Assembly: GCA_964600695.1 (NCBI GenBank)
Contig: CAZRKK010000006.1
Span: 1 to 61,893 of the forward strand
Length of the DNA: 61,893 nt
Reading direction: 5' to 3'
Source of the DNA: an uncultured Candidatus Saccharibacteria bacterium
GTDB taxonomy: Bacteria; Patescibacteriota; Doudnabacteria; UBA920
Shown: piece after piece, positions 16,108 to 29,122 of the stretch
Position numbering within the stretch: position 1 is the stretch's first letter
How the letters are laid out: each line of letters starts with the position of its first letter
The notes under the pieces: model-generated
The model's input: the letters and a program-made list of their open reading frames with translations, nothing else
Database searches by the model: none
What the model was told of the DNA's origin: nothing
Translations under genes and position numbers: made by a program

Positions 16108-16182
16108 GGCGCTATCGTCTAACGGTTAGGACAGGCGGTTTTCATCCGCCAAATCGGGGTTCGATTCCCCGTAGCGCTACCA
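16108..16182 (+). tRNA. tRNA-Glu (anticodon UUC), CCA encoded
   Basis: The cloverleaf was drawn by hand. The acceptor is GGCGCUA/UAGCGCU. The D arm is GUCU-AACGGUUA-GGAC. The anticodon arm is GGCGG-UUUUCAU-CCGCC. The T arm is CGGGG-UUCGAUU-CCCCG, followed by A-CCA. The UCGUCUA...GGAC region resembles bacterial tRNA-Glu. Confidence 0.9.
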
Positions 16183-17689
16183 ACGTTGAATCATCGATAA
16201 CTGAAGCACCCGCAAGGGTGTTTTCATATTGTTTTACTTGGAAGATATGCGACACACTAGGGGTTGTAAATCGTAGATAGTTATAGACCGGTTTTTCTGG
16301 AAAAATTAAACTCATCAACTTTAACTTCTGCCAGTAGTTAGCTCGACTCCAAAACTCCGGTAGTGTACTAATAAAATCAAACACATAGCTTACTGCACGA
16401 TCAATGTCGTACTCCTCTAACTTCGATTGATCTAATTCCAGTTGCTTACTGGTGATCAAATCATTAACTTTAGCAAACTCAATTTTAAAATCTTGATCGC
16501 TAATTAGTTCTTTTTTAATTAAATCTAATACTTTACTCTTCTGATCCTGAAGGCCATTAATTTCTGTTTCAACCTGATTGTGAAAGGTGTTAATGTCTTT
16601 ATACCTGTTCTGCCATACATCTATAATCACTGCTTTAAAAGTATCTAACAGGGGCTTCTTAGGTATTACATCGCCTAGAAAGGCCTTAAATGCCTCCTCT
16701 AGCTTATCTTTGGCAACAGCCTTTGTCGCAGTACAATTCTTGTAATAGCATCTATAGTAACCATACCTACCACCCATCTTACCTATAGAGTAACCAGCAG
16801 TAAGGGGACGACCACAATAACTACAGATCACTAAATGACGAAGAGGAAAATCTTCCGTACTTCTAGCATTAGATTCGGCATCGCCTTTTGTGGACTTCCT
16901 TAAGAGTTGCTGGTTCTTCAGATAAGTACCTTGGTCAATCATTTTTGGTTGGCTACCAGTAAATTCCTGACCTTGATACTTAATAACCCCACAATAGAAT
17001 TTGTTTGTAAGTATTTTATGAATCAATTGAGCCGTGATCGGTTTACCGGATTTATTTCTTAATCCTAACTTGGTAACTTTAGATCTTAACTCTTCCGACA
17101 TATAAATTCCTTTAGAAAACTCAGTTAATACAAACTTTACTAATTCTGAGCAGTCAGGATCTAAAATGATATCTTTCTTGCCGTCAGGGTGAGTAAAGTT
17201 GATATAACCAAACGGTGGACGATGTGGTAGTCTTCCCGATTCGACACAATTAACCATTCCCTGTTTTACTCTCTCACTTCGCATATCGTTATCTAACTGA
17301 GCCACACTTGCCATTATGTTACCTAAAAACTTTCCGGATGATGTTTCGTTGATTGCTTCTGTCGCGGATAAAATATTTATCCCTAAGTCTTTTAAGAAAG
17401 ATTTAATTTCGTAAAAATCCTGAGTATTTCTGGTCAGCCTATCCAGTTTATAAATCACCACAAAATCAATATTATTTTGTTTAGTAGCACAGAACTTTAA
17501 CATGTCCTGTAGACCGGGGCGATCTGTAGTTTTAGCGGATTCCCCTTCGTCAGAAAATAACTTTACAACATCAAATTCCTCTTTGTCTGCATACTTAAGA
17601 CAGACATCCTTTTGGTTATCCAAACTAAAACCCCGCTCAGCTTGATCTGATGTAGAAACTCTATAATATATTACTGCTTTTTTATTCAT
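16142..17689 (-). CDS. Large serine recombinase (integrase); 3' end overlaps tRNA-Glu
   Basis: The resolvase domain starts MNKKAVIYYRVSTSDQAERGFSLDNQ and includes DRLTRN. It also has a recombinase domain, a zinc ribbon (CSYCGRPL...YYRCYYKNC) and a coiled coil. I prefer the ATG at 17689 over the upstream alternative start at 17749. The last 13 codons (..ALRGIEPRFGG) are the antisense of the tRNA T-arm. Confidence 0.85.
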   Translation of the reverse strand: MNKKAVIYYRVSTSDQAERGFSLDNQKDVCLKYADKEEFDVVKLFSDEGESAKTTDRPGLQDMLKFCATKQNNIDFVVIYKLDRLTRNTQDFYEIKSFLKDLGINILSATEAINETSSGKFLGNIMASVAQLDNDMRSERVKQGMVNCVESGRLPHRPPFGYINFTHPDGKKDIILDPDCSELVKFVLTEFSKGIYMSEELRSKVTKLGLRNKSGKPITAQLIHKILTNKFYCGVIKYQGQEFTGSQPKMIDQGTYLKNQQLLRKSTKGDAESNARSTEDFPLRHLVICSYCGRPLTAGYSIGKMGGRYGYYRCYYKNCTATKAVAKDKLEEAFKAFLGDVIPKKPLLDTFKAVIIDVWQNRYKDINTFHNQVETEINGLQDQKSKVLDLIKKELISDQDFKIEFAKVNDLITSKQLELDQSKLEEYDIDRAVSYVFDFISTLPEFWSRANYWQKLKLMSLIFPEKPVYNYLRFTTPSVSHIFQVKQYENTLAGASVIDDSTLVALRGIEPRFGG

Positions 17690-17839
17690 GGTTACTAAAT
17701 TATTTAAACGCAAAGGGCGACCTCTGGTTGATCCGACGCACAAAACCAAAAGGTTATGATTGCTGGCAGAGGCCGCCCTAAAAGCAGCAAGGCAATATAA
17801 AAACCTTTGGTTATAAATTATGCGGGATCAACATCATCA

Positions 17840-18013
17840 TTATACAACATCATTTACATTTTTTCTAGACTGTAGACTTAGATCCTTCTCCCAAAAATCA
17901 AACGAAATATCAGCTAAGACATACATATCTTGCCGGATTTTCTCTATCTCAACATCGGACAAATCCTTGCCATAGTCGTTTAATATTAGTTTGAATTTAG
18001 TTAATGGGATCAT
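17840..18013 (-). CDS. 57-aa hypothetical protein upstream of the integrase, below the track cutoff
   Basis: Hand translation from the ATG at 18013 gives MIPLTKFKLILNDYGKDLSDVEIEKIRQDMYVLADISFDFWEKDLSLQSRKNVNDVV. Its position would suit a directionality factor, but there is no homology evidence. Confidence 0.3.
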   Translation of the reverse strand: MIPLTKFKLILNDYGKDLSDVEIEKIRQDMYVLADISFDFWEKDLSLQSRKNVNDVV

Positions 18014-18031
18014 AAAATTACCAAACGAAAT

Positions 18032-18463
18032 TTAGTCTTCGTTCAACTTTTTCTCATGTTTACATAGGATATTACTTGATTTCATATTTTTGTATTCGTT
18101 TAAAGAACGATAAAAGCTTCGATAAATAGATGCATGATACCTTAAAAGGACGTCAAAAGATGGATTCTTCCTAACAAACATCGTAAATTGATCCATAAAA
18201 TCGCTATCGTCTAAACCAAACTTGGGTTTGCTGATGAATAAAAACAGTTCATTCTCAAGCTTTGAGTACCGCCTTAACCGCCAGTAGTTAATAATTACTT
18301 CTTCTACCATAACCATTTCTAAGGCAGACTCAGGCTGTAATTCGGCGATTAACTTCTTGGCTATTTTATTAAAGGGTCGATTCTCAGCTGGATTTATAAT
18401 TACTTGCTTAGCTAATAAGCCGTGTTTTATTGCGTTGAATTTACTAGTGTTATTATTCGGCAT
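18032..18463 (-). CDS. Hypothetical protein
   Basis: 143-aa ORF that overlaps the upstream ORF by 11 nt, suggesting translational coupling. No recognisable motif. Confidence 0.45.
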   Translation of the reverse strand: MPNNNTSKFNAIKHGLLAKQVIINPAENRPFNKIAKKLIAELQPESALEMVMVEEVIINYWRLRRYSKLENELFLFISKPKFGLDDSDFMDQFTMFVRKNPSFDVLLRYHASIYRSFYRSLNEYKNMKSSNILCKHEKKLNED

Positions 18464-18881
18464 TGATTCTAATAAATTCCTCGGGTTCTAAAATAAAGTC
18501 TTCTAATTGATAAATTTTCCACCCATTAAGCCTAAATCGTAAACCCTCTCTGTCATAGTAGGAATAAGTAATTTTTTTGACTAATGATTGTAATACCTGG
18601 AGCTTAAACCACTCATATCTCCAATTATCACCAAACCTTTGTTGTAAATTTTTTTTAATAACTTTTCTATCTATATGTGCTCTAGACCACGGAACCCTTT
18701 TTGACTCCACAAAAGTGCTCAAACATTTAGGGCAAGCGAATTCACGATCGGTATCAACCCCAAAAGTATGTTCGTTAAGTTTACATTGCATTGTTTTTTT
18801 CTTTCTTATATATACATGCTGCCACTTTACCAAGTTAGGATCACCTGAAGAGAAATAATGAACTTGGCAACTTGGCAACAC
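18453..18881 (-). CDS. Hypothetical protein with a possible Cys4 zinc ribbon
   Basis: 142-aa ORF containing CKLNEH...CPKC. Confidence 0.45.
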   Translation of the reverse strand: MLPSCQVHYFSSGDPNLVKWQHVYIRKKKTMQCKLNEHTFGVDTDREFACPKCLSTFVESKRVPWSRAHIDRKVIKKNLQQRFGDNWRYEWFKLQVLQSLVKKITYSYYDREGLRFRLNGWKIYQLEDFILEPEEFIRINAE

Positions 18882-18918
18882 ATATATAATTAATTAATAA
18901 AAATTCATCTTTACCAAG

Positions 18919-20205
18919 TTAGTCATCAACTTTTGGTTGATCGAACAAATTAACGGCAACCATCCTAAAGGTGTGGCTACGCCCCTTTTTTGATTGTTCA
19001 AGTATCCCAGAATCGACCATCTGCCTTAGGGCTTCCCTACAGTACCTCTCAGCAATATCATGATTTTTAGCCATAATTTTTACAATGTCATTTGTTGTCA
19101 TAAATTCATTGCCCACTATCTGCGGAATAACTAACTTGGCTTCATCCATTTTAGTCGTCATTTCGTCTAACTCTCCTTCATAATTCATCTCAACTTTGAC
19201 AACTTGCATACCCTCTGTACTAGACAGTATGTCTCTAATCCCTACGTTAAATGGTTTAATTTCAATCCCGACTCTGTTTTTTACCTGATGCACAGTAAAA
19301 TACCCTGGATTGACATCACCTTTAATCATTAGTACCATTTCTGCGTTTGCAACTTTGTCCTGACTCCCTAACACATATTCCTTACGTGGTCCACCATGGC
19401 TTCCTCTGTCGGGTTTTCTGTTGTGGTCAAGTAATATGATGACTTTCCCATTATTTTTTAACCTATTAAATCTTTGATAAAATTCCCGAACAGCTCCTGC
19501 ATTATCTTCATCTAATCGCCCAGCGACAGCTCTTAAAGTATCTATAACCACAATCTCAATTTCGTTTTCCTCAATTAACAACTCCAGTGCCTCAAACATA
19601 CCATCCTCTTTTAGGTTTACCTCATGACCTGTAACAATTAGCGGTGCATATTTTGCTGGAATAGAGTCAAAACCTAGAAGTCTACACCTTTTTTGAAGTA
19701 TTTTGGGGCCCATCTCGGCATCTATATACAGGGCTTTACTGCGATAAGTTTTAAAACCCTCATGGGCAAGAAAATGACTACCACAACTAATGCTTTTTAT
19801 AAGTTCAAGAGCAAACCAAGTTTTCTTTTCACCTGATGGTGCTGATATAATCACCACCCCCTGCATAGGAATTAAACTTTGTACCCGCCATTCTTCTTCG
19901 GGGAACCTTAGATTGGAGAGTTCATTCCAAGTCAGCAGTGGCAAATTAAATGAGCCATCACTAGCTTCATCATCCAATATTTTTTTTGACCGTTTTGGAT
20001 AGATACAATCTCTGGAGAAAGTGAAATCTGGCAACTTAGCTACAACTAGACCGTCCCTATTGTAGAGCAATGATTGGAAAAGTGTCTCTACTCCAGGATC
20101 GCTGAGTTCTAAGCTAGGTAACGACATGATTTCATCCTCAGTCAAATTATTAGAATCTATATATTCCATAAAACAAGCACCTGCAGGCCCAGGTTCGTCT
20201 GCCAT
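18919..20205 (-). CDS. RepA-like RecA-superfamily ATPase (AAA_25-type) with C-terminal winged helix
   Basis: The Walker A-like motif is ISAPSGEKKTWFALEL. ALYIDAEMG is present and the Walker B motif is IVVIDTLRAV. LLDHNRKP corresponds to the family's hhHxxK block. The C-terminal region TTNDIVKIMAKNHDIAERYCREALRQMVDSGIL looks like a wHTH. The true start may be the internal Met at 20169. Confidence 0.65.
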   Translation of the reverse strand: MADEPGPAGACFMEYIDSNNLTEDEIMSLPSLELSDPGVETLFQSLLYNRDGLVVAKLPDFTFSRDCIYPKRSKKILDDEASDGSFNLPLLTWNELSNLRFPEEEWRVQSLIPMQGVVIISAPSGEKKTWFALELIKSISCGSHFLAHEGFKTYRSKALYIDAEMGPKILQKRCRLLGFDSIPAKYAPLIVTGHEVNLKEDGMFEALELLIEENEIEIVVIDTLRAVAGRLDEDNAGAVREFYQRFNRLKNNGKVIILLDHNRKPDRGSHGGPRKEYVLGSQDKVANAEMVLMIKGDVNPGYFTVHQVKNRVGIEIKPFNVGIRDILSSTEGMQVVKVEMNYEGELDEMTTKMDEAKLVIPQIVGNEFMTTNDIVKIMAKNHDIAERYCREALRQMVDSGILEQSKKGRSHTFRMVAVNLFDQPKVDD

Positions 20206-20253
20206 AAATGGCCCCGGGGTTTGCAGGTGCTTATCTAGCAGACGAATCGAACC

Positions 20254-20287
20254 AAAATTAAAAATACTGAACTTTATATTCAGTATT
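20254..20287 (-). terminator. Intrinsic terminator after the 20324..20938 gene
   Basis: On the minus strand, the hairpin AATACTGAA-TATAAAG-TTCAGTATT is followed by TTTTAATTTT. Confidence 0.6.
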
Positions 20288-20323
20288 GCAGGTATTTAAA
20301 TATCTACTATTAGCGATAAATTA

Positions 20324-20938
20324 TCACTTAGCCCTAAATTTTCTTCTGCTTATTCCTAGCGCCTTGGCTTGTTCGGTAATAATTCTTTCGATATTTGTAA
20401 GATCGAGGTCTACACCAAATTCAGATATGACGACTTTCCTAATTTCTCTAGTGCTTTTCCCTTCTAGGTTCAGTTGAAATATTTTGGCGTCTCTAGTAGA
20501 TTCACTTTTCACTTTTTTCCTAACTCTACGTAAATTCTCGGGCTTCAGCGAGTACAAAGCAGTCTCAACATCTTTTAGAGTAGTTTTAGGAAAAATAATT
20601 AAGCTATAAATCCTTTCTTCTGTTTCTGGATCAATTTGTTGTCCATTACCATTATCAATAATAGGAGTGTCTGGATCATCAAAGCTTGTACCTTGTAATA
20701 TATAGTCTTGGATAATCATTTCCCACCCAGAATGCTTGTGATACTTAACAGCAAGTTTCGCACTAGCATCCCATACCTTAGCCGTACGACGTCTATAAAC
20801 ACGGTTTTTAGTTAGTACTATACCTAACTGCTGCCTAAGCTGTTCTACGTCTTTAACAAATAAAGGATTATTAAATAATGTTGACAGTTTTTGCTGCAAA
20901 TACTTCTCATCATTCTCTGTTGGTGGATTTGTCTTCAT
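20324..20938 (-). CDS. Hypothetical protein, possible C-terminal HTH
   Basis: 204-aa ORF. The C-terminal region STREIRKVVISEFGVDLDLTNIERIITEQAKALGISRR looks like a small HTH. Confidence 0.45.
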   Translation of the reverse strand: MKTNPPTENDEKYLQQKLSTLFNNPLFVKDVEQLRQQLGIVLTKNRVYRRRTAKVWDASAKLAVKYHKHSGWEMIIQDYILQGTSFDDPDTPIIDNGNGQQIDPETEERIYSLIIFPKTTLKDVETALYSLKPENLRRVRKKVKSESTRDAKIFQLNLEGKSTREIRKVVISEFGVDLDLTNIERIITEQAKALGISRRKFRAK

Positions 20939-21029
20939 ATTTAAATTATGGCATAAAGAGCGTATAATTTAAACATAACTTAATAATTACCTAAACTTAC
21001 AGACTTCTGGCTTGAGCATGGCCTTAAGC

Positions 21030-21122
21030 CCAATGAAGAATACTAAACCCCGCGTTCAGCTATCTTCATTGGTCATACTTGGAAACGAGTATGGAGTCGC
21101 AAGACTCAGCCGGTGTTAGGCT
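21030..21122 (+). ncRNA. Array of four abutting hairpins in the 235-nt gap between the island's divergent modules (structured RNA, or oriT/ori-like DNA)
   Basis: H2 pairs CCAATGAAGA (21030-39) with TCTTCATTGG (21063-72). H3 is CATACT-TGGAAACG-AGTATG (21074-93). H4 is GAGTC-GCAA-GACTC (21094-107) with a GNRA loop. H5 is AGCC-GGTGTTA-GGCT (21108-122). A TATAAT lies at 20963-68. Confidence 0.35.
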
Positions 21123-21173
21123 TTGTGTTTCCGCCAGCAAAAAATGTGACCTAAAAATATTAAAGCATTCAAT

Positions 21174-21740
21174 ATGAAGTTGGACAACTACCATGGAAAA
21201 AAAATTATATTTATCCTACTGATTTCAACATTACTAGCAGGGATTTTTTATTACCTATGGGAAAATCAAAATATTGGCATCAATAAAAAATATGTATTGA
21301 GTAAGTCTGTCAAAAAATATTCAGAACTAATTGAAGTTGGGCTACCTGATCAAGCATATAATTTATATTTAACAACGGATGCTAAAAATCGTGTAACTTA
21401 TAGATTTGAGGATGCCCCTCTTACTGATCAAGAAAAAGAATTAGAACGTATAAGAATCCAAAACTGTCCACGGTACAAAGATGGTCGTATATATAATGGT
21501 ATTATAGATTGGTCTTGTGTTTATGATGGGCCGAAAGAAAAGCAAATCCAGGTTGAAGTATCATCGCTAGAAAATTTTACAAAATATGCTACTAAAAGAA
21601 AAAATGAATGGAAAAATGTACGGATAGACAAAATCATTTTCCCTGGAAAAAACAGAGCTGATGTAAAATTGTTATATAGTAATGGCGATTCTATTGAAAC
21701 ATGGTTTTACATTAATGGTAAATGGTTAAGGGATTTTTGA
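21174..21740 (+). CDS. Membrane-anchored hypothetical protein
   Basis: 188 aa with an N-terminal TM segment (IIFILLISTLLAGIFYYLW). Confidence 0.5.
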   Translation: MKLDNYHGKKIIFILLISTLLAGIFYYLWENQNIGINKKYVLSKSVKKYSELIEVGLPDQAYNLYLTTDAKNRVTYRFEDAPLTDQEKELERIRIQNCPRYKDGRIYNGIIDWSCVYDGPKEKQIQVEVSSLENFTKYATKRKNEWKNVRIDKIIFPGKNRADVKLLYSNGDSIETWFYINGKWLRDF

Positions 21741-21818
21741 CCCAGATGAAACCTATAAATTTTGTGCTTTTGATAGTACGACTAAAAGGAGTATAATTAG
21801 CTTAATTAAGCAAAATAT

Positions 21819-22118
21819 ATGAAAAAAATACTTGTCTTATTGATATTACCTCTTGCCTTGTTGGCTGTAGGTTGCAATAAGGAATCCGGCACAGAGACCG
21901 ATACACTACTACCGGTCAGTTCTACGTCTTCTGATAATACACAGGATAATACAAACTGTGATATTAAAGGTAATATAAATAGTTCAGGCGAGAAAATTTA
22001 CCATGTACCAAGTGGTCAATATTATGGAGTTACTCAAATTGATCGCTCAAAAGGTGAGAAAATGTTTTGTTCTGAAGACGAAGCTGAACAATCTGGTTGG
22101 CGTAAATCAAAACGATGA
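21819..22118 (+). CDS. Lipoprotein with a nuclease-associated C-x-KGNI...IYH...FC...GWR module ('sunset'-type domain as I recall the NCBI name)
   Basis: The lipobox is LLAVGC. The C-terminal module is CDIKGNINSSGEKIYHVPSGQYYGVTQIDRSKGEKMFCSEDEAEQSGWRKSKR. The stop overlaps the nuclease start as ATGA. Confidence 0.55.
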   Translation: MKKILVLLILPLALLAVGCNKESGTETDTLLPVSSTSSDNTQDNTNCDIKGNINSSGEKIYHVPSGQYYGVTQIDRSKGEKMFCSEDEAEQSGWRKSKR

Positions 22119-22765
22119 AACAACGAACAATCTTCAGTTTAATCACTATTGCAGTATTATTATTTCTTGGTTTCAATACAGGATCATATGTCTTACTATC
22201 AAATAAAATTGATAAGCTTCAACGCGTAGCTACCTCTGACTTAATCAAATTAAACAATAGACTAATTGATTTGGGTGCAGATGCATCAAGTATCACAACC
22301 CCATTGAAGACACCAGAATATGGGCAGTTAGTCACTGTCACAAAAGTTATTGACGGCGACACAATAGAGCTAGAAGATGGCGAACGGCTTAGGTATATTG
22401 GTATTGATACCCCTGAAAAAAATGATCCTAGAAAGCCTGTCCAATGTTTTGCAGACAAAGCTACTCAAAAAAATATTACCTTAGTCGAAGGGAAAAAAGT
22501 CAAGTTTTATAAAGACGTAGCAGTTAGAGATAAATACCAGAGACTACTTGGTTATGTGTATTTAGAAGATGGTACTTTTATTAATCTTGAGCTGGTAAAA
22601 ACAGGATTTGCATTTTCATATCCTTACCCTCCTGATATCTCAAAACAAGAAGAATTTAACAAAGCTCAATCAGCTGCAAGAGAAAATAATCTTGGACTAT
22701 GGTCTGGATGCACTATCACAGAGACAAGCACAGGTAGACAACAAACAAATAATGTTATTGATTAA
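22115..22765 (+). CDS. Membrane-anchored thermonuclease (staphylococcal nuclease / SNase family)
   Basis: The SNase pattern is VIDGDTIELEDGERLRYIGIDTPE...RDKYQRLLGYVYLEDGTFINLELVKTGFA...AARENNLGLWS, behind an N-terminal TM segment. Confidence 0.85.
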   Translation: MKQRTIFSLITIAVLLFLGFNTGSYVLLSNKIDKLQRVATSDLIKLNNRLIDLGADASSITTPLKTPEYGQLVTVTKVIDGDTIELEDGERLRYIGIDTPEKNDPRKPVQCFADKATQKNITLVEGKKVKFYKDVAVRDKYQRLLGYVYLEDGTFINLELVKTGFAFSYPYPPDISKQEEFNKAQSAARENNLGLWSGCTITETSTGRQQTNNVID

Positions 22766-22767
22766 TT

Positions 22768-23055
22768 ATGCCGAGTAATATGAAGACAACTATACTAATA
22801 ATTTCTTTGATGTTATTAGCATCAGGTTGCACCTTTTCTACAGAATGGACAGGGTTTTACAACAAGAATGGGAACACAATGGCAGATCCGATTATGCAAG
22901 CTGGATTCAAAGATTCTACATCTTGCCTTACTTGGGCAAAAAGCCAGAAAGAATTATTGCATGATGAGGAGGGAACTTATGAATGTGGTAGTAACTGTAA
23001 AGTCCTAGACTCGACATATGGTACTTATGTCTGTAAAGAAACATTAGATGAATAA
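22768..23055 (+). CDS. Small lipoprotein
   Basis: The lipobox is LLASGC. The mature part of the 95-aa protein contains 4 further Cys. Confidence 0.5.
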   Translation: MPSNMKTTILIISLMLLASGCTFSTEWTGFYNKNGNTMADPIMQAGFKDSTSCLTWAKSQKELLHDEEGTYECGSNCKVLDSTYGTYVCKETLDE

Positions 23056-23061
23056 TAATTT

Positions 23062-23694
23062 ATGTATATAATCAAATCTTACAAAAAACTATTTTTTGGT
23101 TTTACTTTAACAATTGTTTTGGTAATTATTTGCTATTATCTTTCTAGTGAATATGCGAGTCAGAAGGTAATAAAGAATTTTTTTATAGCAGCAAGTAATG
23201 AAAATTGCCAAAAACTACAACCTATACTTAAGTACCGACTATTAAATCATGATATTTTATGTCCTAGAGGTGATGTGGGAAATTTTATGGTGATAGATAA
23301 GGTAGAATACAAAGTTAAAAATATTTTAGGAAGCAAACTGAGCGGGACCAAACAAGTTTTGATTTCTGTCTGCATAGAAACACATGGTGTAGCCGCATGG
23401 AATGAGGGAATCTTTAAAGACTGTACTACTGACCCGAGAATAATTGAATTTGATAGAAAACAATTTAGTTGGCAAACAGATATCAGTCAATTTACTAATA
23501 TTTCTAAGCTTATAAATGAATCAGGTGCCAAACCTGAAAGTTTCGATAGATATTACCAACAATGTTGGGAAAATAGGATAACAGAATTTTCATTTCATGG
23601 CAACTCAACAATAAACTGTAATAATGTGGTTGGTGATGAGATTGAATATTCGATCAGAACCCACAAATTTGTACAGACTGGTAATGCACGGTAA
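23062..23694 (+). CDS. Membrane-anchored hypothetical protein
   Basis: 210 aa with an N-terminal TM segment (FFGFTLTIVLVIICYYL). Confidence 0.5.
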   Translation: MYIIKSYKKLFFGFTLTIVLVIICYYLSSEYASQKVIKNFFIAASNENCQKLQPILKYRLLNHDILCPRGDVGNFMVIDKVEYKVKNILGSKLSGTKQVLISVCIETHGVAAWNEGIFKDCTTDPRIIEFDRKQFSWQTDISQFTNISKLINESGAKPESFDRYYQQCWENRITEFSFHGNSTINCNNVVGDEIEYSIRTHKFVQTGNAR

Positions 23695-23761
23695 TCTTCT
23701 CTTTATAGTTTTTAGAGCATAGCTAAAATCACCCAACCAAACGAATCCTCAACAAACCCAT

Positions 23762-24739
23762 ATGAAAAATCTAATTTTACTACCAATTATTTTTGTACTA
23801 GCCATACTTCCTCACCCCCCTGAAGCCATGGCATATGGTGAGTGTACACAATATGGTATTTGGTCTTACTATGACTCAACCTCTAGAAGCTGTAAATGCA
23901 TGAGCGGGTACATGTTCGGCAAATTCTTAGGATCGGATTATTGTGTTTCTAGAGACCAGTACTGCACAGACAAATATGGTTATAATTCTAAATATGATTC
24001 TCTTACCGGTTCTTGCGGATGCAGATACGGATATATAATGGATGGTGGAAAATGTACTGATGGCAACAGTGTCTGTAGAGCAGATCATGGTTGGGATTCA
24101 GAGTACAATTCACTAAAAAATGCTTGTGGTTGTAGATCAGGATACACGTTTGATGATTCAAATAGATGTGTTAAAAAACAAAATAATGTTTATTTTACCG
24201 TCAAAGAAATTAATACGGATGAGAAGCAAGCCATAATTCGGAGTCAATATGACTATGGCTACTATTTAATCAAATACGGGTACGGCTGCTATTCGTCAAG
24301 CTTTAATCGATATCTAAATGACAGCATCGTTGTCAACTTGGGAACAGACTTTTCAGTAGATACTTTTGATAAAATTGTTTTACAGGATGATAACGAGACT
24401 TGCGATATAATTAAAGTTTCCAGAGCTAATTCCAGCACCACTCTCTATCCTGATGATGAAGATACATCCTCACCATACATACTTAATACAAGTCCGAAAT
24501 TTACGCCAACCCCTAAACCATTAGATAAACCAATAGAACCTGTGAACAACTTATCAATCGAAAAGACCAAACCAGAGTCATTACTACTAAATGTAACTGA
24601 TACAGATGAAGGCAGTGTAACCATAACTAATGAGGAGAAAGGGAATAATACAAATAATATCGAAGCTCAAAAACCCGAAAACAAAATAATCACCTTCTTT
24701 AAAAAAATTGGTGAATGGTTTAAGAGATTGTTTACCTAG
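23762..24739 (+). CDS. Secreted Cys-rich repeat protein
   Basis: It has a signal peptide and three ~37-aa repeats of the form C-x3-(Y/H)G(Y/W)-x-S-x-Y(D/N)SL-x3-C-x-C-x2-GY-x6-C. A Pro/Thr-rich linker and an amphipathic tail (FFKKIGEWFKRLF) follow. Confidence 0.55.
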   Translation: MKNLILLPIIFVLAILPHPPEAMAYGECTQYGIWSYYDSTSRSCKCMSGYMFGKFLGSDYCVSRDQYCTDKYGYNSKYDSLTGSCGCRYGYIMDGGKCTDGNSVCRADHGWDSEYNSLKNACGCRSGYTFDDSNRCVKKQNNVYFTVKEINTDEKQAIIRSQYDYGYYLIKYGYGCYSSSFNRYLNDSIVVNLGTDFSVDTFDKIVLQDDNETCDIIKVSRANSSTTLYPDDEDTSSPYILNTSPKFTPTPKPLDKPIEPVNNLSIEKTKPESLLLNVTDTDEGSVTITNEEKGNNTNNIEAQKPENKIITFFKKIGEWFKRLFT

Positions 24740-24845
24740 CAAAATCTCGAAATTACTTCGTACAATATTTCAACCCTTATATTGTGCAAGAGTACATACT
24801 AAGAGTATTTTCTACCACTAGCGGCCTAAAAAATGGGAATATAAT

Positions 24846-25529
24846 ATGAACCTTAAAGTTAGCCTCGGCAAAGACATTGATAAGCAAGATTATTCAATTG
24901 ACTTTGCCAAACAAAATATTAACTTAACTCTAATTGCCGGCTCAAGTGGCACTGGCAAGAGTGTTTTAGGATACCACATCTACCAGCAACTTGTTAAACA
25001 AAACAGCCCAAACGAGATTACTTTTGTTCTCATAGACAATGTTCATCTAGAGTTTACGCAATGGAACCAAAAATCCCCTTACCTGTACTGCCCTAACATA
25101 ACTGACCAAACTAAAGCCTTAAAAGTTTTAGAAAGTGTCGCAGAACAAATCGACCAAATTAACTCCAGCACCAAACACTATTTTATTCATATCGAAGAGT
25201 GTAACCAATTTGCAAGCGACACAGAGCGAATGAAGCAAATTTTTCAAAAGCTATTCCAAAATAAAAGTGACAGCAAAATCCACCTGATATTTTCCACCAG
25301 TCGTCCATCTAAAGAAATTTTTGCAGATTGGTTATTAGAGATTTCAGATCTAAAAATCATATTTAAACTACCCAAACCCGATGATTACATTACCGTAGCT
25401 GGTGAAGATTTTTCTAATATATTAAAAGGTGTGCCAAGTTATAAAATTGCTTGCCTTCGTGACGAGTTCATTCAACTATTACCATTGTCAGTGGAGGAAG
25501 TTATCTCTGCAGAAAAGTTTAGACTCTAA
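24846..25529 (+). CDS. Minimal FtsK/SpoIIIE-family P-loop ATPase (motor core only, 227 aa)
   Basis: It aligns by eye block for block with the E. coli FtsK motor. [34 protein letters not shown] matches [40 protein letters not shown] matches [25 protein letters not shown] matches the Walker B block. [11 protein letters not shown] matches IHLVLATQRPS. There is no membrane domain and no gamma domain. Confidence 0.75.
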   Translation: [227 protein letters not shown]

Positions 25530-26248
25530 TGACTCATGTACTAAAAAACGTCATCATCCCCTTCCATTCCAGTTATGACGGTAAGAATATAAACAAAGAT
25601 ATTCCTGCCGTAGTTCATCATGGGAATAAAAACGGTGTAGTTATTCTTAACTACCCAGGTGCTAACGGCGATATTGATGGTTATGAAAATAAATACCAGA
25701 AAATGGCTAGTATATTATCCGATGGTGGTCATGGAACAGTGGTGAGATTAGCAAACGAAACTGTGGATAGAATGGACTGGGAAACCGCCACACAAGAAGT
25801 CTTACAACACGCAATCGAGTATGTCCTAGAAAATGGGCAAGAACTATCAGGAAGTGATTCACCTACCTTATACCTAATGGGTTTTTCTGCTGGAGCGAGT
25901 GCTATTGCTTCGATCTGTGGAGTTTACGAGGAAGTTAAAAAAGTCTTACTCATAGCACCATCAGAAGACGCAGGATGGGATGCCATGCATAACAGTCTAT
26001 CTCTATACAAACACGAACTCTACATTACCGCCGGCGAAGACGATACTTATATTGGGATGCACACCGCCCCAAAAATTGATGCAGTAGCTACGAATACCTC
26101 CAAAAAGGAGATAATCACCATACCAAATTGTGACCATCAATTTAAAGGCAGGGAAAATGGTATAATCCTAAGTAAAGCACCTCTCTGGGCTTTTGCAGGT
26201 GACACAAGTTATCCTAGTCCTGAAGGTGGAATGGTGTTGTATGAATAA
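25529..26248 (+). CDS. Alpha/beta-hydrolase fold protein
   Basis: The nucleophile elbow is LMGFSAGAS (GxSxG), with a late His in NCDHQF. The start overlaps the previous stop by 1 nt. Confidence 0.6.
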   Translation: MTHVLKNVIIPFHSSYDGKNINKDIPAVVHHGNKNGVVILNYPGANGDIDGYENKYQKMASILSDGGHGTVVRLANETVDRMDWETATQEVLQHAIEYVLENGQELSGSDSPTLYLMGFSAGASAIASICGVYEEVKKVLLIAPSEDAGWDAMHNSLSLYKHELYITAGEDDTYIGMHTAPKIDAVATNTSKKEIITIPNCDHQFKGRENGIILSKAPLWAFAGDTSYPSPEGGMVLYE

Positions 26249-26258
26249 ATAATCAGTA

Positions 26259-26669
26259 ATGAACATCTACCTAGACATCGATGGAGTTTTACTAACGGAT
26301 TCATTATCCGATCGTGGCAATCCTACACCACACTCTTTGGAGTTACTCAAGTTCCTCACCGAGAATCATACCGTCTATTGGTTAACTACTCACTGTCATG
26401 GCGGTGAAAATCGTGCTCCAGAACACCTCTACCAAAAATTCCCACCGGAAGCTAAAATATATATAGACAAAATACTACCCACAGACTGGGGTACCTGGAA
26501 AACTGATGCCATAGATTTTACTCAAGACTTTAGATGGTTAGATGATGATGTCTACCAGCCTGAATACGATACTCTAGCTAAACATAATTGTAGTGATAAA
26601 TTGATTAAGGTCGATCTAAGGGAAAATCCAAACAAGTTAAAAGATATTATTCAATTATTAAATACTTAA
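26259..26669 (+). CDS. Small HAD-like protein
   Basis: The N-terminal MNIYLDIDGVLL fits HAD motif I (DxDGV). 136 aa. Confidence 0.45.
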   Translation: MNIYLDIDGVLLTDSLSDRGNPTPHSLELLKFLTENHTVYWLTTHCHGGENRAPEHLYQKFPPEAKIYIDKILPTDWGTWKTDAIDFTQDFRWLDDDVYQPEYDTLAKHNCSDKLIKVDLRENPNKLKDIIQLLNT

Positions 26670-26690
26670 CTTTACAAAAGAATCACACTC

Positions 26691-27236
26691 ATGTTAAATA
26701 AAGTAATTATATTCGTACTAGTAATTCTAGTATTTGGTGGGTATCTGTATAAAGTACATCATGTTGATACAAAAGTAGTGCCTGGTGAAGGTGCAGTGAA
26801 AGAAGTAGAATATTATAAACATTGGATTAACGTAAAACTTAAACCAGATGCAAATTCCATTGATTTAGTTGATCTTAAATTATTCCATGGTTTTGATCCT
26901 AAAATTACTACTAATGAAGCGCGCATCAGATTTGGAGAACCATCCAATGTTCAAAAAAAAGAATTTTACGAGGCATATGAATATTCCTTCCCAAATGCTA
27001 GAATTGAGCTTACATTAGAACAAGTCAGCGACGGGACATATTCATACACAGACAAAGGACTTTACTCTTATCCTTATGAAGTTGAATATAGTGAATTCTT
27101 TAATGACAATATTAATAAGTATATTATACCCAATGTAGATGAGACTGTTGTTACTCTAATAGATGATAAAGATGAACCTAAATTTTTAGCTTCTATAAAA
27201 GGCACTAGAATTGACCATATAATTTGGTATAAATAA
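26691..27236 (+). CDS. Membrane-anchored hypothetical protein
   Basis: 181 aa with an N-terminal TM segment (VIIFVLVILVFGGYLY). Confidence 0.5.
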   Translation: MLNKVIIFVLVILVFGGYLYKVHHVDTKVVPGEGAVKEVEYYKHWINVKLKPDANSIDLVDLKLFHGFDPKITTNEARIRFGEPSNVQKKEFYEAYEYSFPNARIELTLEQVSDGTYSYTDKGLYSYPYEVEYSEFFNDNINKYIIPNVDETVVTLIDDKDEPKFLASIKGTRIDHIIWYK

Positions 27237-27314
27237 TAAAAAATCCATCTTTAATAAATTAGTAACTAAATTGTATAGGCACCTTAAAGACATAGTTCGA
27301 TAATTTGCTCCGCT

Positions 27315-27377
27315 CGGTACCCCGCCTTTAGGATATACAAAGGGGTACCGGCAGGGGTGGCTCCCCTCCCCCCTACC
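27315..27377. other. GC-rich palindromic or hairpin element in an AT-rich intergenic region
   Basis: A perfect 9-bp inverted repeat pairs CGGTACCCC (27315-23) with GGGGTACCG (27342-50), 18 nt apart. The hairpin AGGGG-TGGCT-CCCCT (27353-67) and a C6 run follow. Confidence 0.4.
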
Positions 27378-27526
27378 AAGAGTTGTAACAACTATCACGA
27401 CAGCGTCAGTAACAATCTATATACCAGCCTGCAAGATCTGTATTAACGCCTGAAACTCCTTGATTTCCTTGACTAGGGGGTTGTAAAACTTTTTCGTAAA
27501 GACTACCACGCTTAAATTATATATAC

Positions 27527-27556
27527 AAAACACCGCTTAACAGCGGTGTTTTAGTT
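27527..27556. terminator. Bidirectional intrinsic terminator
   Basis: The hairpin is AACACCGC-TTAACA-GCGGTGTT, flanked by A-rich sequence on one side and T-rich sequence on the other. Confidence 0.7.
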
Positions 27557-27574
27557 TTCCAAATAAGAGTTGGG

Positions 27575-28192
27575 CTATATCCGACTTAATGATCCAATTG
27601 ACTCGTTATAGAACTCTGGGAATAGAAGTTGGAGTACTCTATCTAACTCCATCCAAATAGCCTGTTCATTTTTACTAATAGCAATCTGGTCAACAATATC
27701 CCTGGCCTCAACTTCGATATCTGTCAGCAATTGGTGTAGTCGAGATAATTCCATATATTTTTCATTATGTTTGGCCTTTAGTTTATGATGACCAATGTAT
27801 TGATAATGATGAACAGCTTCTTCCCTACCCGCATTTCTCAAATACCTTAGATAGTTAACCTCTCCAAGATCTTGCCCTTTAATCACACCTATTTTTTCAG
27901 TACGTTCCAGTAAAGGAGTATTTAAAGTTTCTAATTTTTTAAAATATTGTATTGGTATATTAATTACTTGCTGGTCAGGGACATAACCGATTGTATCCAA
28001 ATTATCGGAACTTATAAAACTGAGACCATCATCATTCCCGCGACCTAAAAATTCTTGAGCTTCTTGAACCCCAATGGATATCTCGGTAACCATAAGTTCG
28101 ATATCAGAATCTTTTAACCTCACACCTCTTTCATGTAACAGTTTGTATTTTGACTCTGGATTAAAATCTAGATCACTATTTGGTTTATTCAT
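27575..28192 (-). CDS. Hypothetical 205-aa protein (orphan)
   Basis: Clean ORF with GGGGG (28197-28201) as the only purine-rich candidate RBS 5 nt upstream, plus its own promoter and terminator. No recognisable motif. Confidence 0.55.
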   Translation of the reverse strand: MNKPNSDLDFNPESKYKLLHERGVRLKDSDIELMVTEISIGVQEAQEFLGRGNDDGLSFISSDNLDTIGYVPDQQVINIPIQYFKKLETLNTPLLERTEKIGVIKGQDLGEVNYLRYLRNAGREEAVHHYQYIGHHKLKAKHNEKYMELSRLHQLLTDIEVEARDIVDQIAISKNEQAIWMELDRVLQLLFPEFYNESIGSLSRI

Positions 28193-28225
28193 TTTAACCC
28201 CCTAAAGTTTTTACGTTAACAAAAA

Positions 28226-28254
28226 ATTATACAGAATCAAGGGTAGTTTGTCAA
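28226..28254 (-). promoter_or_regulatory. Consensus sigma-70 promoter of 27575..28192
   Basis: Read on the minus strand: the -35 is TTGACA (28254-28249), the spacer is 17 nt, and the -10 is TATAAT (28231-28226). Confidence 0.7.
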
Positions 28255-28325
28255 TGTCAGCCTTTGGTAAACCTCCCTTACCAAAGCCAGATAAGTTTTC
28301 CACCTGTCTTGTTTTGGTCTACCAA
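28250..28325. repeat. Copy A of a 76-nt duplicated promoter-upstream module
   Basis: GTCAATGTCAGCCTTTGGTAAACCTCCCTTACCAAAGCCAGATAAGTTTTCCACCTGTCTTGTTTTGGTCTACCAA aligns with copy B. The 40-nt core AAACCTCCCTTACCAA-N-GCCAGATAAGTTTTCCACCTGTCT is identical apart from one position. Confidence 0.8.
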
Positions 28326-28390
28326 TAAAAAAATTAAAACGCCTGTTTGGGTGTTTTTGATTTGGTTTTATATATGCGAAAATGGTTTTC

Positions 28391-28423
28391 CAAAATAAAA
28401 GCGCTGGTTGTAAAACCAACGCT
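28391..28423 (-). terminator. Intrinsic terminator of 28459..28953
   Basis: On the minus strand, a 10-bp stem AGCGTTGGTT-TTAC-AACCAGCGCT is followed by TTTTATTTT. Confidence 0.7.
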
Positions 28424-28458
28424 TTAGAAATTCGACTCTCCAAGATTCTTAAAGTGTC

Positions 28459-28953
28459 TTAACCTAAGGCAGTTATTGCAACCTCTTGCTTGGCTACCTC
28501 TAATGCTAAGTCTTCCCAACGGCATATACTAAAAGTTGGGTGATCCTCTCCGATGGCTTGCAGAACTTCCTTAGTTTGTTCGAGCCAACGTTCATCTTCT
28601 TGAACAAGACCAGAGGTACGAGCACATTTTAACGAAGCCTCTTTATCTAAGAAAAGGGCAACAATGCGTCCACTCTGTTCTCCCCACCACACTGTATTAC
28701 ACTTTTCTATTTTACGCTGGAACGATGTGATACCACCACCCTCCGGAATGAACTCGATCAAACGAACACCAACTGACATCATTGGACCACTGAATGTTCT
28801 ACCGACAGGTGAAGTTTTACCAACCGATTCAAAAATACATTCTGCGATTGGTTGATACCCACCATGACCGTCATTAGCTTTAACCGAATAAGTACCCCCA
28901 AGAGTTACTGCAAAAAATTCTTGCAACTGATTATCTCTATTATTATCTTCCAT
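28459..28953 (-). CDS. Hypothetical 164-aa protein (orphan)
   Basis: Clean ORF with GGAGGA 5 nt upstream, plus its own promoter and terminator. No recognisable motif. Confidence 0.55.
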   Translation of the reverse strand: MEDNNRDNQLQEFFAVTLGGTYSVKANDGHGGYQPIAECIFESVGKTSPVGRTFSGPMMSVGVRLIEFIPEGGGITSFQRKIEKCNTVWWGEQSGRIVALFLDKEASLKCARTSGLVQEDERWLEQTKEVLQAIGEDHPTFSICRWEDLALEVAKQEVAITALG

Positions 28954-29011
28954 ATATCCTCCAAAAATTTATAGCTACTAATTCAAGTGTCATCACAAGA
29001 TTAGATTTATC

Positions 29012-29040
29012 ACTATATTAAATTATAGACTCGTTGTCAA
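29012..29040 (-). promoter_or_regulatory. Sigma-70 promoter of 28459..28953
   Basis: Read on the minus strand: the -35 is TTGACA (29040-29035), the spacer is 17 nt, and the -10 is TATAGT (29017-29012). Confidence 0.6.
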
Positions 29041-29111
29041 CGTCATCAATTTATAAACCTCCCTTACCAATGCCAGATAAGTTTTCCACCTGTCTCGAGA
29101 TGGTCTACCAA
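29036..29111. repeat. Copy B of the 76-nt duplicated promoter-upstream module
   Basis: GTCAACGTCATCAATTTATAAACCTCCCTTACCAATGCCAGATAAGTTTTCCACCTGTCTCGAGATGGTCTACCAA. It occupies the same position relative to its -35 element as copy A. Confidence 0.8.
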
Positions 29112-29122
29112 AAAAACAGGGG

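Follow-up and report, generated by a model that had tools for sequence, protein, structure and literature searches.

FtsK-like ATPase and its gene run in a Saccharibacteria contig

The DNA analysed here (the window) is a 61,893-nucleotide (nt) stretch, contig CAZRKK010000006.1 of the uncultured Candidatus Saccharibacteria bacterium assembly GCA_964600695.1, and our subject is a gene within it that encodes a 227-amino-acid (aa) FtsK-like P-loop ATPase, here termed mini-FtsK. The gene is the first of a tight plus-strand run which continues with a serine hydrolase, a NIF-like HAD phosphatase and a small membrane protein, and the run lies in an integrated island beside a tRNA-Glu gene (Table 1). 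An original prediction, made from the sequence alone, had described the protein as a stand-alone minimal FtsK/SpoIIIE ATPase carrying every core block of the FtsK alpha/beta motor, and as the best single hint of how the island might move DNA. We find that mini-FtsK is the FtsK beta (RecA-like) domain alone, lacking transmembrane (TM) segments, linker, alpha and gamma domains, and we tentatively read it as part of a defence-type cassette; it is probably not a pump that moves the island between cells.

The open reading frame (ORF), Pfam and structure matches agree on a stand-alone minimal FtsK/SpoIIIE ATPase. In the Pfam alignment, which the original prediction had proposed as a check, PF01580 (FtsK_SpoIIIE) was matched at 52.3 bits (gathering cut-off 24; E=6.7e-14), with query residues 2-104 covering profile positions 17-118 of 221 only. 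FtsK motor domains were the sole matches of a phmmer search against PDB sequences, with 2iuu (E=2e-9) matched in two collinear stretches (residues 4-101 of the query against 195-290 of the chain, and 127-184 against 361-418). The AlphaFold2 (AF2) model, obtained with 35 homologues as input (predicted local distance difference test score, pLDDT, 93; predicted template modelling score, pTM, 0.90), was matched best in Foldseek by the E. coli and P. aeruginosa FtsK motors (2ius/6t8b; query TM-score, TMq, 0.81-0.86; E ~1e-15), followed by a tier comprising TcpA, EccC/EssC, HerA and the STIV2 packaging NTPase B204, and the fold match extends over the beta domain, beginning at the first strand and ending with the hairpin and helix at the C-terminus. 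No TM or hydrophobic segment was found in mini-FtsK. FtsK_alpha had no match in the protein or on the contig, both sequence and structure matches beginning after the alpha domain, and no gamma domain was found on the contig, the gamma matches of the genome being confined to contigs C3 and C10. The motifs quoted in the original prediction were all located (LGKDI 7-11, GSSGTGKS 32-39, ITFVLID 58-64, HYFIHIEE 111-118 and a fifth block at 145-155) and its statement that TM segments, linker and gamma domain are missing holds, whilst the designation as an alpha/beta motor is wrong, the protein being beta only.

The short length of mini-FtsK, and nothing else about it, would suit a remnant of a disrupted chromosomal ftsK. 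However, the genome (1.12 Mb in 55 contigs, 99.4% complete) has on contig C3 the full-length gene that the original prediction had suggested looking for, encoding an intact FtsK of 750 aa with four TM segments (4TM), alpha, beta and gamma domains which is just 29% identical to mini-FtsK. Alpha and gamma pieces are absent from the mini-FtsK contig, and the length of ~227 aa is kept in dozens of homologues with a common MNLKV start. These observations refute the remnant reading, which the original prediction had named as counting against it. A third FtsK-like gene, on contig C10, encodes 522 aa with REC, beta and gamma domains and has neither alpha domain nor TM segment.

Table 1. Positions of the island, its attachment (att) cores and the annotated genes in the window.
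Feature	Position	Strand	Evidence
tRNA-Glu(UUC); its 3' end CTACCA (16177-16182) is the attL core	16108..16182	+	ARAGORN, Rfam, junction comparison
Integrated island, 11,320 bp, between two CTACCA cores	16183..27502		C34 junction comparison
Large serine recombinase, 535 aa	16142..17749	-	Pfam Resolvase 2.6e-36, Recombinase and Zn_ribbon_recom; PHROG integrase 1e-87
AAA_25 (RepA/DnaB-like) ATPase with C-terminal winged helix-turn-helix (wHTH); candidate island replication protein	18919..20205	-	Pfam AAA_25 6e-24; PHROG primase/helicase families
Membrane-anchored staphylococcal-nuclease (SNase) homologue, island cargo	22115..22765	+	Pfam SNase 8.6e-26; PADLOC C3a212 SNc+LTD 3e-33
Mini-FtsK, 227 aa, beta-only (RecA-like) P-loop ATPase	24846..25529	+	ORF, Pfam PF01580, AF2/Foldseek
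Alpha/beta-fold serine hydrolase, 239 aa, GFSAG nucleophile elbow	25529..26248	+	Weak Pfam BD-FAE/DLH matches
Capless HAD-type phosphatase, NIF/Scp1-like, 136 aa, DxDG	26259..26669	+	Motif, AF2, Foldseek, Atlas
181-aa protein with N-terminal hydrophobic segment, last of the plus-strand run	26691..27236	+	ORF
attR core CTACCA; opens a ~60-nt module recurring at 28268 and 29051	27503..27508	+	

Conservation of ATP-site and DNA-contacting residues

Across the family alignment G32, G37 and K38 (Walker A), D64, H115-I116-E117-E118, S150, S152 and R153 are invariant (35/35). The Walker A lysine and the Walker B acidic residues (E117, E118), whose loss the original prediction had named as counting against it, are therefore intact, and the Walker B motif is an H-I-E-E variant in which Glu replaces the usual Asp in all 35 sequences. 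In P. aeruginosa FtsK the arginine finger is R620, DNA loop II comprises R632, S634, V635, G640 and K643, and DNA loop I comprises K657 and R661 (Jean et al., 2020; PMC7321959). Equivalences with this protein, taken from an ungapped sequence alignment only, place R153 (the R of STSRP, invariant in the family) at the DNA-contacting loop II residue R632. R620 falls on S141, a variable column adjoined by K140, which is Lys in 27/35; K643 falls on position 164 (Leu in 18 sequences, Lys/Arg in 11); and K657 and R661 fall on positions 178 and 182, both variable. On this alignment the label 'arginine-finger region' that had been given to residues 145-155 appears misplaced, R153 corresponding to the DNA-loop residue R632 and the finger R620 to the variable position 141. 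As judged from these alignments, the family retains the ATP site and not the full DNA-gripping apparatus of FtsK.

Distribution and phylogeny of the mini-FtsK family

A search for homologous proteins returned 21 sequences of 212-294 aa, nearly all of them 212-252 aa long and starting MNLKV, and scans of genomes and metagenomes added 26 further loci from Saccharibacteria, Woykebacteria, Peribacteria, Omnitrophota, Bdellovibrionales and a 'Pseudomonadales' metagenome-assembled genome (MAG). An exhaustive profile search gave 73 clusters (50% identity) at E<=1e-30. In a FastTree phylogeny of 179 domains mini-FtsK falls within a 62-row clade (support 97), 49 rows of which are mini forms, and this clade is nested in a 96-row clade (71 mini) that stands apart from canonical FtsK, including that of the genome itself. 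The mini forms are a distinct clade of about 200-240-aa proteins found in phyla of the candidate phyla radiation (CPR), in Omnitrophota and in Bdellovibrionales MAGs. Sporadic extensions were seen in relatives, comprising REC, MORN, PP2C, gamma, alpha plus TM, and N- or C-terminal TMs. Tandem fusions of a mini-beta domain with canonical FtsK (P0061, P0072), considered as a possible Rosetta stone, were dropped, as they lie outside the mini-FtsK clade in the tree.

Only 2/95 genomes of the taxonomic family carry the gene (the present genome, G000, and G085), from which we conclude that mini-FtsK is an accessory, horizontally moving gene. Locus L005 lies on G085:C2, a genome of the same genus, and synteny of the window with G085 extended to three genes only and did not define the island. 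No relatives were found in a scan of IMG/VR, and tblastn against 72,556 plasmids and 50,697 phage records returned only generic FtsK-like genes of at most about 27-28% identity; of the PHROG terminase families, phrog_2666 was matched by mini-FtsK at 2e-5. The mini-FtsK family is an old, horizontally scattered group of stand-alone, beta-only FtsK-like proteins. Short FtsK-like proteins are already known in the form of Atlas and PHROG clusters; the beta-only clade, its partnerships with HAD, hydrolase and nuclease genes, its defence-island habitat and its location on a serine-integrase island in Saccharibacteria appear undescribed in the literature and libraries searched.

Partner genes of mini-FtsK

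Within the run the start of the hydrolase gene overlaps the mini-FtsK stop by 1 nt, and gaps of 10 and 21 nt separate the hydrolase from the HAD-like gene and the HAD-like gene from that for the 181-aa protein, which had no family match in Pfam or PADLOC. In the HAD-like protein D6 and D8 are invariant and the AF2 model has a pLDDT of 94; its Foldseek matches were weak, almost all of them capless HADs (HisB-N, Scp1/Fcp1, GmhB, MDP-1), its Atlas neighbours bear NIF and HAD_SAK_2, and a search of the family profile against PDB sequences gave nothing meaningful. The HAD-like gene adjoins mini-FtsK in 9/27 loci and the two are joined in a single fusion protein (P0030). The order FtsK-hydrolase-HAD of the present run recurs in L051, and in L028, L051, L057, L058 and L060 a homologue of the hydrolase has mini-FtsK or the HAD-like gene as its neighbour. 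PD-(D/E)XK genes lie upstream of mini-FtsK in L004 (DUF2779) and in L019 and L024 (PDDEXK_1); in L004 the order DUF2779, mini-FtsK, HAD is the same as that on contig C10.

Several variants of this arrangement were observed. At C10:24900-27700 (L002, L045) a DUF2779 gene (PD-(D/E)XK-type, 264 aa) is followed by the 522-aa REC-FtsK beta-gamma gene and by an HAD-like gene (138 aa) whose start overlaps the stop of the FtsK-like gene. The HAD-like ORF at L026:8611-9822 encodes 403 aa, with the HAD domain fused to a further C-terminal region, and at L011:10611-11800 an HD phosphohydrolase gene comes after the HAD-like gene downstream of mini-FtsK, with masked bases at the junction. In both of these Bdellovibrionales-type loci the whole unit comes after a Type III restriction-modification (R-M) system and an SMC-like ATPase. 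A HAD-like domain with 45% identity to the 26259-26669 product and an intact DxDG also forms the N-terminal 120 residues of many ~729-aa FtsI/PBP-type proteins (P0174-P0205, with PBP dimer and transpeptidase domains), which, provided that these have the topology usual for class B PBPs, hints at a divisome enzyme bearing a phosphatase module in the cytoplasm.

Neighbourhoods of family members

The closest relatives of mini-FtsK (65% and 53% identity; L004 and L005) stand in R-M contexts without integrase or Rep; a Type I R-M system is present in both, accompanied by GmrSD in L004 and by Fic and an SLOG protein in L005. Members of the methylase (HsdM-like) and Fic clusters recur in L009, and of the HsdR-like cluster in L019. 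L011 carries Type III Res and Mod genes with an SMC-like ATPase, and the same Res/Mod clusters occur in L013, L014, L024 and L026. Amongst 112 further neighbours, Pfam and PADLOC identified AAA_21, ResIII and SMC_N (four each), N6_N4_Mtase, RloB and MTase_III (three each), Bro-N (two), Patatin, and AbiLi (three; 6.9e-75), together with a tyrosine integrase once only; judging from cluster sizes, the three AbiLi matches presumably belong to the 403-417-aa cluster of L008, L010 and L029.

A homologue of the serine recombinase was present in only one of the 26 other loci (L008), a homologue of the island's Rep-like ATPase in none of them, and across all 27 loci there was no conserved capsid-sized neighbour. 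The only genes recurring beside family members are HAD-like, hydrolase and nuclease genes. An SNase homologue lies two genes from mini-FtsK in L019.

The island and its borders

The left flank (gdh, trxB) and tRNA-Glu are conserved in the genus and the island interior is mostly unique to this genome. A search for direct and inverted repeats did not reveal the att sites, which were given by whole-genome DNA comparison. In this comparison with the genus, contig C34 of the same genome (1,647 bp; L064) matched both island edges, the first 55 nt of its reverse complement being identical to 16128-16182 (the tRNA 3' half) and the last 55 nt to 27503-27557. C34 is an alternative assembly path that bypasses 16183-27502, i.e. 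an empty-site allele, and the island is therefore the 11,320 bp between two CTACCA cores. The attL junction runs from ...GCGCTACCA into ACGTTG, the attR junction from ...AAGA into CTACCACGCTTAAAT, and the empty-site junction from ...GCGCTACCA into CGCTTTTAAAT. With both ends defined and an empty-site contig, the assumption that mini-FtsK lies in a genuine integrated island is borne out.

The serine recombinase is at the tRNA end of the island and the ATPase run at the opposite, integrase-distal end, the usual site of cargo. The recombinase ORF runs across attL, with its stop and final 13 codons (16142-16182) in the 3' half of the host tRNA-Glu, and its C-terminus would therefore change on excision. 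Apart from mini-FtsK, the only island genes to match PHROG families were those for the integrase and the AAA_25 ATPase, with a weak match for the hydrolase. Prim-Pol and DUF3631 had no match among the 12 island proteins scanned against Pfam, and the two small lipoprotein genes of the island were scanned without a match. No repeat array scoring >45, such as clt-like tandem repeats would give, was detected in the island, and a promoter and terminator scan gave nothing above shuffled expectation.

Other features of the island and its surroundings were noted. Six consecutive plus-strand genes at 21174-24739, including those for the SNase homologue and a 325-aa Cys-rich protein, have N-terminal hydrophobic segments or lipoprotein-like leaders, as judged by eye, and paralogues of two of the six are found at G000:C2:146178-146608 and G000:C11:5945-6281. 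A LOOT RNA (Rfam RF03000; 66.5 bits, gathering 46.4) at 20988-21107 (+) sits between the divergent gene modules of the island and corresponds to what had earlier been described as a 'hairpin array'; LOOT-like DNA is also present at G000:C2:89630-89724 and G092:C1:65616-65715. Downstream of tRNA-Glu, 27503-29116 and C34 carry single-gene cassettes with ORFs of 434 aa (C34), 205 aa (27575-28192) and 164 aa (28459-28953), each bounded by a ~60-83-nt module that begins CTACCACGCTTAAAT and repeats the tRNA 3' end and att core, with further module copies in the genus (G092:C10, G080:C63, G088:C4, G089:C1). This tRNA-side arrangement has the look of scars left by serial integration, or of a cassette array resembling an integron.

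Proposed role of mini-FtsK

We tentatively favour the view, at a probability of roughly 0.45, that mini-FtsK is the ATPase of a conflict- or defence-type cassette carried as island cargo, because the constant company of the family is restriction and abortive infection (Abi) genes together with exchangeable enzymatic partners, because its closest relatives occur in such contexts without mobility genes, and because both HerA/FtsK ATPases and HAD phosphatases, the latter present in validated defence systems (PMC13092281), have defence precedents (PMC10853773, PMC13092281). The narrower proposal that mini-FtsK and the NIF-like HAD, with or without the serine hydrolase, constitute a new anti-phage defence system is more doubtful. 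In a cassette of this kind mini-FtsK would be an NTP-driven sensor or motor subunit. With regard to oligomer, substrate and defence function, we infer that it may oligomerise as other FtsK/HerA ATPases do, could engage nucleic acid via the retained R632-equivalent arginine (R153), and would then work with exchangeable partners (HAD, PP2C or HD phosphatases, the alpha/beta hydrolase and PD-(D/E)XK nucleases), in a manner analogous to HerA/FtsK 'capture' defence modules.

Several points weigh against a defensive role. Reasoning from defence neighbourhoods is guilt by association and mobile elements gather in them too, and the gene-by-gene neighbourhood annotation leaves out the long loci L006, L007 and L012 and the surroundings of C10. 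PADLOC-DB 2.0 has no full-length model for mini-FtsK, the best match being mad8 (1.1e-9, residues 2-64), and gave no match for the partner genes. The pairing of FtsK and HAD is facultative, since, of the 20 loci with the HAD-like gene in the phylum, an FtsK-like gene lies within 1.5 kb in only ~4 (three clear and one weak, at 25 bits), and most of the fusions are singletons from automatic gene calls. [quoted passage not shown]

This layout invites the alternative that the island moves as double-stranded DNA (dsDNA) with mini-FtsK as its Tra protein, helped by small membrane proteins as are TraB/TraSA by Spd. Saccharibacteria live on Actinobacteria, and the discrete 11.3-kb island at a tRNA 3' end, with its empty-site allele, serine integrase, AAA_25 Rep-like ATPase, six membrane or secreted proteins encoded upstream of the ATPase and phosphohydrolase-type cargo, fits such a reading, as do the relatives with TM anchors or a gamma domain. 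AICEs are defined operationally by Int, Rep and a PF01580 protein, and HD and Nudix hydrolases are reported as their cargo (Ghinet et al., 2011; PMC3218068). We nevertheless consider transfer by mini-FtsK unlikely, and the fuller claim of an AICE-like island in a Saccharibacteria epibiont, with dsDNA transfer by a beta-only motor without type IV secretion and the first outside Actinobacteria, still less likely. Mini-FtsK has no TM segment, wHTH, gamma or alpha domain, sequence alignment shows neither the arginine finger of FtsK nor its basic loop I residues to be conserved, no clt-like repeat array was found in the island, and the Rep of the island is not of the RepSA, RepAM or Prim-Pol type. 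In the other loci recombinases are confined to one serine and one tyrosine enzyme and Rep is absent, relatives including the closest two have R-M, GmrSD and AbiL genes beside them, and searches of plasmids (none >28% identity), phages and IMG/VR gave no close relative. For these reasons the gene is a weak clue to how the island moves DNA and not the strongest one.

The protein-phosphatase type of the partners (NIF-like HAD, PP2C), the REC domains, the HAD-bearing FtsI/PBP-type proteins and the closeness of mini-FtsK to cellular FtsK in sequence and fold could instead point to a modulator of the divisome or of chromosome segregation, with mini-FtsK and the HAD acting on the host division machinery, e.g. 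FtsK or FtsI, rather than on foreign DNA. We regard this as improbable, given an accessory gene whose neighbours are restriction and Abi genes rather than division genes. Mini-FtsK has the size of a minimal packaging ATPase, and the Foldseek match to STIV2 B204 (E ~4e-8), the phrog_2666 match and a ~11-kb island with several small membrane proteins are in keeping with an A32/P9/B204-like enzyme that packages the genome of an integrated virus of the tailless, membrane-containing kind. FtsK proper is, however, a far better match than any packaging ATPase, no relative was present in IMG/VR or, above 28% identity, in the phage records, PHROG matches elsewhere in the island do not go beyond the integrase, the AAA_25 ATPase and the weakly matching hydrolase, and a capsid gene, which would be expected to recur, is not amongst the recurrent neighbours, making this reading highly improbable.

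Implications

Beta-only FtsK-like proteins are currently annotated just as 'FtsK/SpoIIIE domain-containing'. Their occurrence raises the question of whether an FtsK RecA domain lacking loop I, the canonical arginine finger and the alpha domain can still assemble into a functional ring and hold on to DNA, and that of what role is played by an FtsK-type ATPase whose partner is an HAD enzyme resembling protein phosphatases. Should the cassette serve in defence, it would represent a compact and portable ATPase-phosphatase system of CPR bacteria, about whose immunity little is known, and HAD phosphatases in defence would gain a tractable partner; if mini-FtsK is a transfer motor, FtsK-type dsDNA conjugation would be extended beyond Actinobacteria. 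An island with precise borders and an empty-site allele in the same assembly offers a direct route to an excision test.

Comparison with known systems

Mini-FtsK shares with the FtsK motor beta domain (2ius, 2iuu, 6t8b) the RecA-like fold from the LGKDI strand on (TMq 0.81-0.86), Walker A, an acidic Walker B, the T/S-Q/S-R-P motif and the IDN/IDPK strand. It differs from FtsK in having no 4TM, linker, alpha or gamma region, in its E-E Walker B, in a segment ~45 residues shorter leading from the helix that follows the ID strand to Walker B, and, by sequence alignment, in lacking conserved equivalents of R620, K657 and R661. TcpA, the coupling protein of pCW3, and the EccC/EssC ATPase domains are second-tier structure matches (E 1e-12 to 1e-9), but these are membrane-anchored or multi-domain proteins from type IV and type VII secretion system loci, and no such genes were found here. 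Phages, among them mycobacteriophages and SPO1-like phages of Bacillus, also encode short FtsK/SpoIIIE-like proteins (PHROG 1358 and 3551), which are of similar size (215-290 aa) and belong to the same Pfam family, whilst their identity to mini-FtsK is at most 27%.

The likeness to AICEs and their TraB/TraSA proteins lies in a single PF01580 protein on a ~11-kb tRNA-integrated element with integrase, replication-type ATPase and hydrolases. The 16183-27502 island unites the integrase and PF01580 protein of the AICE definition in one element, whereas its sole replication-type gene is the AAA_25 ATPase and not RepSA, RepAM or Prim-Pol. Unlike AICE Tra systems, the island has no detected clt-like repeats and mini-FtsK no detected wHTH or membrane association; the host belongs to another phylum, and relatives of mini-FtsK elsewhere are not on such elements.

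HerA/FtsK domains have been recurrently captured by defence systems (PMC10853773). Compared with the modules concerned (the DndH/SspH C-terminal ATPase, SIR2-HerA, MAD7-MAD8 of the MADS system and the 'HerA/FtsK capture systems'), mini-FtsK is far smaller and has neither a HAS barrel nor a fused nuclease, and it is accompanied by phosphatases and a hydrolase where those modules have SIR2 or DUF4297; in the literature on the MADS system the domain of mad8 is not stated. What mini-FtsK has in common with these modules is a superfamily ATPase combined with exchangeable effectors in defence islands, together with weak PADLOC matches to mad8, SspH and HerA and a Foldseek match to the SIR2/HerA complex.

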